Assembly (NCBI GenBank): GCA_964534555.1
Contig: CAZHRK010000003.1
Location: forward strand, 1 to 64,000
From: an uncultured Pseudomonadota bacterium
GTDB lineage: Bacteria > Babelota > Babeliae > Babelales > RVW-14
DNA: 64,000 nucleotides
Direction: 5' to 3'
Shown: piece after piece, positions 2,293 through 3,318 of the stretch
Layout: each line of letters opens with the position of its first letter
Position numbering within the stretch: position 1 is the first letter of the stretch
Notes under the pieces: generated by a model
Seen by the model: the letters and a program-made list of their open reading frames with translations, nothing else
What the model was told of the DNA's origin: nothing
Database searches by the model: none
Translations under genes and position numbers: made by a program

Positions 2293-3318
2293 TTATATTC
2301 CAAAAAAGGCATGTGCTCGAGCTATGATGCGATCGAATTCATGCTGATTTGTATCAAGGCCTGATTCGTTGCGAATTGAGCTTACACCTAAAAAACCACC
2401 AGCGCGCGGCGTGTAGTACAGAGCCTCTTTTTTGCCATCCTGTATAACTTTAGCATGAATAATATACTCCTGAACGGGTGCTGCGCCTGCAAGTTCGATT
2501 AAGTGTCCTTGCTCAGGAAACAAGCGCTGGTCATGTGTGAGTGTTTGTGCGCCAAGTCCGGTGCAATTAATAATAACGGGTGAAGTTATTTCATCAAAAG
2601 AAGAAATTTTTTTGATTGAAAGAGAAACGTTATAACTTTTAATGAGAGCGCGTAGCTGATGCATCATCTCTGGCACATTAATAAAAATACTTTTGTACTC
2701 AAGCAGCTCATGCTGCGTCTTGCCGCCAAAATCTAAAAGAACTGGCGTTGGTGAATCAATCAATTCACGCTTAACGTACCAATCAAGGCCCATTTGTGCA
2801 TGTGGGCTTGTATACGCTGGTAAAATACGAGCCGCTGATGAGCTTAAAAATGGGTGTGTGCCTGCGCTAATCTGCTTGTACTTTTCAAGAGAGCGTACAT
2901 TAAGCTTGTCCATCAAAAGCTGTTGTGATGGCGGTGTTTGCCTGCTGTATGCAGGTGCCCACACCCCTGCAGCATTATCAGATGTTAGATCATCAATTTT
3001 GTCTGCTATTATTCCTACAGTATAGCCTGCACGTGTCAGTACGATTGCACTGAGAAGTCCAATGCAGCCAGCGCCAAGTATGGTGATATCAGAATTTTTT
3101 TGTGGTACATGTTCTGTAACAAGCTCACGCATAACATCTGCAGACCCAAGCAGTCGTGTCCAACCAGCACCAGCATGACCATACTGATGAAAAATTTTTT
3201 TGCCGTTTTTTTCTTCATACGAAATTTTAGCGCCACCTCCACGAGCAGGGCGAATGCACGTTATTGTACGTTTGATGTTGTTCTTAAGAACAGGTGGAAT
3301 AAGTGATACTTTTTTCAT
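2293..3318 (-). CDS. FAD-dependent oxidoreductase, D-amino-acid oxidase (DAO) family, apparently circularly permuted
   Basis: N-terminus carries the DAO C-terminal signature (CIRPARGGG...E, FHQYGHAGAGWT ~ GLRPxR...RLE / HNYGHGGYGLT). Then follows the DAO N-terminal dinucleotide fold (ITILGAGCIGLLSAI), AAGVWAPAY, INCTGLGA and PEQGHLIEL. The protein ends where the DAO C-terminal block would normally start. Start taken at MKKVSL (3318) rather than the upstream alternative at 3405. Confidence 0.65.
   Translation of the reverse strand: MKKVSLIPPVLKNNIKRTITCIRPARGGGAKISYEEKNGKKIFHQYGHAGAGWTRLLGSADVMRELVTEHVPQKNSDITILGAGCIGLLSAIVLTRAGYTVGIIADKIDDLTSDNAAGVWAPAYSRQTPPSQQLLMDKLNVRSLEKYKQISAGTHPFLSSSAARILPAYTSPHAQMGLDWYVKRELIDSPTPVLLDFGGKTQHELLEYKSIFINVPEMMHQLRALIKSYNVSLSIKKISSFDEITSPVIINCTGLGAQTLTHDQRLFPEQGHLIELAGAAPVQEYIIHAKVIQDGKKEALYYTPRAGGFLGVSSIRNESGLDTNQHEFDRIIARAHAFFGI

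Follow-up and report, generated by a model that had tools for sequence, protein, structure and literature searches.

A circularly permuted gene of the D-amino-acid oxidase family in a Dependentiae bacterium and its relatives in an apparently undescribed bacterial clade

Can a flavoprotein of the D-amino-acid oxidase type carry its normally C-terminal segment at the front of the chain and still be an intact gene under selection? The question is raised by one gene in a stretch of 64,000 nucleotides (contig CAZHRK010000003.1 of GenBank assembly GCA_964534555.1, positions 1 to 64,000; hereafter the window), which derives from a Dependentiae (TM6)/Babeliales bacterium, as judged from its GyrA, at 75-81% identity to proteins recorded under that name. 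The gene (2293..3318, minus strand, as are all of its parts given below) is complete, with its stop codon at 2293-2295, and encodes a protein of 341 residues that begins MKKVSLIPP. A preliminary description, made from the sequence, had proposed that this protein is a circular permutation of the DAO family, to which D-amino-acid oxidase (DAAO) belongs, whereas to our knowledge every described DAO member is colinear. We put the probability that the gene is an intact, selected, permuted member of the DAAO/D-aspartate oxidase branch of the DAO (GR2) family at roughly 85%. As an alternative start codon we considered TTG 3405, which was rejected as unlikely because it would overlap the upstream open reading frame (ORF) and because the 57% identical orthologue (P0002) begins at the equivalent of ATG 3318.

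Order of motifs and profile segments in the window protein

All the motifs quoted in the preliminary description are located in the translation: CIRPAR at residues 21-26, HQYGHAGAGWT at 44-54, ILGAGCIGLLSAI at 80-92, AAGVWAPAY at 116-124, INCTGLGA at 250-257 and PEQGHLIEL at 268-276. The native protein does not give the colinear, whole-profile match to the Pfam DAO model (PF01266) in which the Rossmann unit is N-terminal and HxYGHxGxG is C-terminal. Residues 77-339 match profile positions 1-297 of 353 (71 bits, above the gathering threshold of 27.9), and residues 6-66 match positions 296-353. When residues 1-75 are scanned alone, the sole family recovered is DAO, again at profile positions 296-353 (E 0.0029). 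Placing residues 1-72 behind residue 341 in silico yields a single Pfam match over positions 1-353 of 353, at 80.1 bits, and the HMMER alignment of this un-permuted sequence to yeast DAAO crosses the artificial junction uninterrupted. The two pieces are exactly complementary and the protein stops where the N-terminal piece resumes. The circular permutation is genuine, and the motif is no chance match.

Comparison with solved enzymes places the two segments in the same way. In phmmer searches against PDB sequences, residues 11-61 align with 305-355 of the D-aspartate oxidase 9vpf, residues 20-74 with 325-379 of the fungal D-amino-acid oxidase 7ct4, and residues 77-123 with 8-55 of yeast DAAO 1c0i. 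A profile of the N-terminal segment (A2, 10 sequences) retrieves 17 PDB sequences with E values of 9.8e-14 to 1.2e-5, all of them D-amino-acid or D-aspartate oxidases, and all 17 matches sit in the C-terminal region of these enzymes (~267-380). At the sequence level the gene is thus confirmed as encoding a circularly permuted, putative flavoprotein of the DAO family: the two Pfam halves, the full match after un-permutation and the segment profile bear out the original proposal. That proposal had also placed the end of the protein where the C-terminal block would normally start, and the match does end at profile position 297, with the N-terminal segment covering 296-353. The objection it had itself raised, a chance N-terminal motif alongside a normal C-terminal one, does not hold, as the protein has no second C-terminal motif.

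Read from its start, the chain opens with the module that is canonically C-terminal (residues 1-72, 3103..3318), which in the AlphaFold2 model consists of strands 15-26, 31-37 and 40-46, the HxYGHxGxG loop and helix 56-70. The first of these strands contains Arg23 (3250..3252), where HMMER aligns cIRPARggg with VGLRPARRGG of 1c0i. The loop H44-Q-Y-G-H-A-G-A-G52 (3163..3189) is aligned to the HNYGHGG loop of 1dao, 6rkf and 7ct4; we take HxYGHxGxG to be the loop that contacts the flavin, with HNYGHGGYG as its canonical DAAO version. A six-residue linker, VPQKNS (residues 71-76, 3091..3108; mean predicted local distance difference test score, pLDDT, of 90 over residues 71-80), runs between helix 56-70 and strand 77-81 and so bridges the would-be old C-terminal helix and the old N-terminal Rossmann strand. 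It is followed by the beta-alpha-beta dinucleotide-binding unit (residues 77-105, 3004..3090), whose first residue is position 1 of the Pfam DAO profile and which contains GAGCIG (residues 82-87, 3058-3075). Residues 106-341 (2296..3003), extending to profile position 297, comprise the remaining flavin adenine dinucleotide (FAD)-binding and substrate-binding domains and include S113, NCTGLG (residues 251-256, 2551-2568), Tyr301 (2416-2418; aligned by HMMER with Tyr238 of yeast DAAO) and a terminal helix predicted at residues 326-339 (2302-2343). The chain ends after a helix which, in canonical enzymes, is followed by the Arg strand.

The AlphaFold2 model, computed from an 11-sequence alignment, is confident throughout (mean pLDDT 90.6, predicted template modelling score 0.89, no low-confidence segment). 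After the three strands, the YGHAGAG loop, helix 56-70 and the linker, it continues with the Rossmann strand 77-81, helix 85-96, the remaining domains and the final helix 326-339. The nearest solved folds are human D-aspartate oxidase and D-amino-acid oxidase, with an identity to solved enzymes of only ~20%. The fold comparisons depend on chain order and align ~240-290 positions, which is the extent expected when a match is limited to the 265 colinear residues. The model is consistent with the earlier suggestion that a folded enzyme is plausible, and we consider that the permuted protein probably folds and works.

Extent, export and origin of the permuted family

The rotated order extends well beyond the window. 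A first homology search returned 10 proteins of permuted order (23-96% identity) and five of canonical order. We define the permuted clade by a module of RPxR, HxYGHxGxG and helix situated 29-46 residues upstream of GxGxxG, together with a chain end behind the helix that canonically leads into the Arg strand, an arrangement that the window protein shares. When a profile of the permuted set was searched against 1.84 billion representative proteins (50%-identity clusters), it gave 9200 matches at E<=1e-3 and 1281 representatives at E<=1e-30; canonical DAAO sequences score ~104-126 bits with this profile. The best 150 matches are all single, full-length and colinear with the permuted profile. We then located the module with the N-segment profile in 163 proteins, comprising the 15 from the first search and 148 new representatives. 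It lies in the N-terminal half of 153, and the others are two fusions, three N-terminally truncated fragments and five canonical proteins with the module at the C-terminus. Both fusions carry the module immediately before the Rossmann unit, i.e., in the same internal order, so that 145 of the best 148 new representatives are of permuted order (143 with an N-terminal-half module, plus the two fusions) and three are fragments. Judging by the scores of canonical DAAO, and with the best 150 inspected, we estimate that most of the 1281 strong matches are permuted and that the clade comprises roughly a thousand clusters at 50% identity.

Two permuted members, P0114 (519 residues) and P0117 (494 residues), carry ~150 additional residues, without a Pfam match, inserted in the substrate-binding domain behind the GHLI(T/S)LK strand.

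In a scan of one genome per GTDB species, at least 459 loci carry the permuted gene, with colinear, full-length matches. The best 80 of these loci were examined and belong to Chlamydiota, Acidobacteriota, Bacteroidota (Dyadobacter, Larkinella, Emticicia), Sphingomonadales, Caulobacterales, Bradyrhizobium, Gemmatimonadota, Myxococcota and Planctomycetota, cultured strains included. Family members are already present in RefSeq and UniProt, as exact look-ups show (e.g., WP_035359582.1, WP_111627955.1, WP_056280910.1 and WP_043284279.1), and the names given to permuted members in databases are only “FAD-dependent oxidoreductase,” “D-amino-acid oxidase” or “secreted protein.” As judged from these sequences, the permutation is neither a local nor a recent event, because the same order is seen in 145 of the 148 best new representatives and in many phyla. 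It is the hallmark of a large, apparently undescribed bacterial clade and not a peculiarity of the window genome.

Three metagenome-assembled genomes (MAGs) titled “uncultured Yersinia sp.,” “Polynucleobacter meluiroseus” and “Rickettsia typhi” (L005, L006 and L007) have permuted-gene loci of low GC content (34-45%). Such a GC content fits poorly with at least the first two names, and the bins may be mislabelled or contaminated.

Most members of the family appear to be exported. A leader of at least 22 residues is present in 100 of the 151 aligned members. Members from GC-rich genomes display clear twin-arginine (TAT) and lipobox signals, e.g., MDRRFFLHGSAALIGSSALGLTGC in Edaphobacter, and Sec-like signals occur in some AT-rich relatives. 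A few members, the window protein among them, lack a leader altogether, and the Dependentiae protein is presumably cytoplasmic.

Among individual loci, the AT-rich L002, L004, L005 and L007 encode Sec-type leaders without a twin arginine, and the GC-rich L032, L033, L058 and L073 encode TAT signals with a lipobox. A Sec-exported flavoprotein would need to acquire its FAD outside the cytoplasm, which is unusual.

The origin of the rotated order was approached with a neighbour-joining tree of 146 members, un-permuted in silico, and 29 canonical homologues, with saturated distances capped. Permuted and canonical sequences are split in 80 of 100 bootstraps, and the tree is consistent with a single ancient permutation event. 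The preliminary description had gone further and named a route, duplication followed by fusion and truncation. The permutation itself stands, while the route is a textbook inference whose intermediate we do not find: among the top 150 representatives inspected there is no DAO-DAO tandem, no partial duplicate and no protein with two HxYGH modules, and the only long matches (P0133 and P0150) prove to be SufS-like fusions. Of the two things it had suggested seeking in related genomes, the same architecture does recur, across many phyla, and the tandem intermediate is absent from the inspected sequences.

We therefore offer the following scenario only tentatively, with somewhat less than even odds in its favor. 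A single ancient permutation may have founded a possible main bacterial branch of DAAO, in which most members would be TAT-exported lipoproteins acting as extracytoplasmic amino-acid oxidases or dehydrogenases, and in which the cytoplasmic versions of symbionts would be secondary and coupled to pyridoxal phosphate (PLP) enzymes, as threonine-aldolase-like neighbors or SufS-like fusions. Such a branch may span Acidobacteriota, Bacteroidota, Alphaproteobacteria, Gemmatimonadota, Planctomycetota, Chlamydiota and Dependentiae.

Candidate chemistry and gene neighborhood

Residue conservation, counted over the 151 aligned family members, follows the known functional positions. Within the relocated module, Arg23 is kept in 147 members, Arg26 in 141, Tyr46 in 146, Gly47 in 148, His48 in 135 and Gly52 in 148. 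Elsewhere, the three glycines of GxGxxG are kept in 149-151 members, Ser113 in 149, Asn251 in 143, Cys252 in 148, Tyr285 in 138 and Tyr301 in 110. The window protein has all of the FAD motifs (GxGxxG, S/T-S-x-x-A-A-G, NCTGLG and HxYGHxGxG), and these are almost invariant across the family. The spacing from the flavin loop to GxGxxG is constrained to 29-46 residues (median, 35), which fits a short structural linker. Both residues of the carboxylate clamp can be aligned in the window protein. By the HMMER alignments, Arg23 corresponds to the arginine that binds the alpha-carboxylate (Arg283 of pig and human DAAO, Arg285 of yeast DAAO), and Tyr301 to the carboxylate-binding tyrosine (Tyr228 of mammalian DAAO, Tyr238 of yeast DAAO).

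We regard oxidative deamination of a small amino acid, with FAD as the cofactor, as the most likely function. The chain opens with the Arg23 strand, a small beta-meander, the flavin loop and the normally terminal helix; the linker then leads into the Rossmann beta-alpha-beta (GAGCIG) and the remaining FAD and substrate domains, and the protein stops after the helix preceding the canonical Arg strand. We therefore expect a DAAO-like active site and three-dimensional fold, with the new termini in a surface loop. Arg23 and Tyr301 would hold a small D-amino acid or glycine while a hydride passes from C-alpha to FAD, the imino acid would be hydrolysed to a 2-oxo acid and ammonium, and the flavin would be reoxidised by O2 or another acceptor.

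The genes around the oxidase give this chemistry a possible context. Downstream of it lie a gene for a DUF2608 secreted protein (1427..2248, minus; PF11019) and, as the last gene of a putative operon, one for a threonine-aldolase-like PLP enzyme of the Beta_elim_lyase family (397..1419, minus; PF01212, E 6e-29), which matches LtaE weakly (64 bits, cutoff 312). The order of permuted oxidase, DUF2608 and threonine-aldolase-like gene is found in the window (the latter two at 397-2248), in a relative whose oxidase is 96% identical (L001; pair at 11130-12978) and next to the 57% identical orthologue (L083; pair at 1266-3112). In these three Dependentiae-type loci the two genes that follow the oxidase look like an operon with it. 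A terminator-like hairpin follows the aldolase gene (344-360, minus) and carries little weight: in a scan of 200-4500 for promoters and terminators, counts were not above the shuffled expectation.

Upstream, a small ORF of 92 residues occupies 3348..3626 (minus; from the ORF list) and ends 30 nucleotides upstream of the start of the permuted gene; its product has a signal peptide and a basic tail rich in Cys (CGCCCRRPRR). It shows no Pfam match and no relationship to DAO; the N-terminal module is therefore not the end of a DAO gene lying upstream. The ORF is 55% identical in L001, versus 90-96% for the flanking genes, and is thus fast-evolving.

Beyond Dependentiae, a PF01212-family aldolase adjoins the permuted gene in Dyadobacter (L064, L073) and in a Phycisphaerales MAG (L010). 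Genes of the RidA/YjgF family (imine deaminase) stand directly beside it in three loci, L005 (5247-5804, minus), L007 (5295-5720, minus) and L032 (7080-7550, plus), and at least the L005 copy carries its own signal peptide. In addition, two metagenomic proteins, P0133 (768 residues) and P0150 (779 residues), join a permuted DAAO unit to a class-V PLP domain (~1-400) that resembles SufS and scores under the SufS cutoff, a combination that suggests a coupled PLP and flavin pathway acting on a small or sulfur amino acid. However, all-against-all BLAST clustering finds no partner conserved in more than four of the 80 loci, with the threonine-aldolase-like and RidA-family genes in three loci each. 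The PLP and RidA links are compatible with an amino acid as the substrate, perhaps glycine or another small one, and are only suggestive.

Other features of these contigs are recorded here in their own right. Three tandem ORFs of 196, 174 and 125 residues in the window (4327-5861, minus) have N-terminal, signal-like hydrophobic segments and no Pfam match, and may encode secreted symbiont effectors. The L001 contig encodes a RING-finger protein of 96 residues (2696-2986, plus), a eukaryote-like E3 ligase domain; RING-finger-type domains are typical of amoeba-associated intracellular bacteria. Finally, a 1673-residue ORF in the window (35867-40888, minus) adjoins two tRNA genes (35489-35742).

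Alternative explanations and relation to known enzymes

Several observations weigh against reading the gene as a permuted DAAO-type enzyme of single origin. Tyr301 is replaced in about one-quarter of the family, and we see no clear equivalent of Tyr224, which belongs to the active-site lid in mammals. By homology and model confidence, the N-terminal module probably occupies the site of the canonical C-terminus; FAD binding, catalysis and substrate class of the permuted members are inferred. The test of single origin is a distance tree with 80 of 100 bootstraps and a narrow canonical sample of one Bacteroidota clade and four eukaryotes. Neighborhoods are mostly not conserved, which makes the guess at a substrate weak.

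The alternative that survives best accepts a functional, permuted DAO-fold flavoprotein and gives it another role, with a different substrate (another amine, a 2-hydroxy acid or an opine-like compound) or as a dehydrogenase that passes electrons to a partner instead of O2. The NCBIfam equivalog models all fall far under their cutoffs, with 38.6 bits for glycine oxidase ThiO (TIGR02352; equivalog cutoff, 250.8) and 28.4 bits for D-amino-acid dehydrogenase DadA (NF001933; subfamily cutoff, 383). The active-site lid region is variable, Tyr301 is not universal, no neighbor is conserved family-wide, and many members are exported lipoproteins, a form in which we know of no characterised DAAO-type oxidase. 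Against this, the carboxylate-binding Arg is nearly invariant, RidA and PLP amino-acid enzymes recur nearby, and the closest relatives by sequence and fold are DAAO and D-aspartate oxidase and not the sarcosine, glycerol-3-phosphate or opine enzymes; the family profile matches DAAO/D-aspartate oxidase at E 1e-29 to 1e-35 and glycine oxidase at only 1e-7. We regard a different substrate or electron acceptor as unlikely, though of the explanations other than an amino-acid oxidase it is the one that deserves most attention.

Decay offers a much poorer account. Circular permutations typically arise by duplication and subsequent truncation, and the gene could in principle be the decaying remnant of a recent tandem DAO duplication in the window genome. 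Yet the coding sequence differs from its 96% identical orthologue by 29 synonymous and 12 nonsynonymous changes, corresponding to a ratio of nonsynonymous to synonymous substitution rates (dN/dS) of 0.115, and the gene is under purifying selection. The ORF is complete with a confident predicted fold, the cofactor and catalytic motifs are intact and conserved across the 151 family members, the order is ancient and family-wide, and a two-module protein was not found among the representatives inspected. We consider a pseudogene very improbable.

Weaker still is an assembly chimera, in which a mis-join would have put the 3' end of a DAO gene ahead of its 5' end, a risk that the preliminary description had itself pointed out. 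Nothing was found in its favor; the reason to consider it is that the window probably comes from a metagenomic assembly. The 96% identical copy (L001) lies on an independent contig of 74 kb from another sequencing run (Logan), with the same neighbors; a continuous permuted ORF recurs at 57% identity on another contig (L083) and in hundreds of isolate and MAG genomes, complete chromosomes included; the flanking genes are unrelated to DAO; and no second DAO-like sequence or paralogue was found within the window, all of which leaves a mis-join hardly credible. Equally negligible is a chance resemblance, in which an unrelated extension would precede a DAO domain truncated at its C-terminus: taken alone, the first 75 residues do score under the gathering score of the broad Pfam model (E 0.0029), but the family segment profile finds only the C-termini of DAAO and D-aspartate oxidases in the PDB, the segment complements the 1-297 match exactly and is colinear once un-permuted, and the invariant residues are the known functional ones.

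A functional permuted DAAO-type enzyme would matter in several respects. DAAO is a flavoenzyme familiar from textbooks; it serves industry as a biocatalyst and chemogenetics as a source of H2O2, and it is also a drug target. The GR2 fold would be seen to tolerate a Rossmann unit away from the N-terminus, and the family would point to a permissive site for new termini, of use in fusions, sensors and split designs. The family would also bring to light a large group of flavoenzymes that bacteria export, with periplasmic D-amino acid or glycine handling, peroxide production and nitrogen scavenging as candidate roles. For annotation, a caution follows: domain models give a partial DAO match (profile 1-297), and the N-terminal catalytic Arg and flavin loop are easily missed. 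If our proposal is true, the exported permuted clade is an uncharacterised type that current annotation merges with ordinary DAAO.

Natural circular permutation is already a known phenomenon, and in other enzyme families it presents as the same fold with a rotated chain, termini in surface loops and a short linker between the old ends. For the DAAO family the clade is apparently undescribed: we found no PDB sequence with the permuted order, and no description of a permuted DAAO or GR2 flavoprotein in the full-text literature, with subscription-only papers outside the scope of that search. Other PF01266 members, namely ThiO, sarcosine oxidase and DadA, are of canonical order and far more distant. 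Closer are the canonical-order bacterial DAAO homologues (e.g., the Bacteroidota clade of P0008 and a “FAD-dependent oxidoreductase” of Gracilimonas tropica), which are of similar length (~320 residues), belong to the same Pfam family and share 27% identity with the window protein across the colinear part, but have the normal N-to-C order and fall on the other side of the split seen in 80 of 100 bootstraps. The best relatives by both sequence and fold are the DAAO and D-aspartate oxidases (EC 1.4.3.3 and 1.4.3.1; 2DU8, 1DAO, 1C0I, 6RKF, 7CT4 and 9VPF), with which the window protein shares the FAD motifs, the carboxylate-binding Arg and Tyr, a length of ~340 residues and a predicted two-domain fold. 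Unlike DAAO, the permuted proteins have no peroxisomal targeting signal and most carry TAT, lipoprotein or Sec signals instead, and the last ~60-75 residues of the canonical enzymes come first in their chains.

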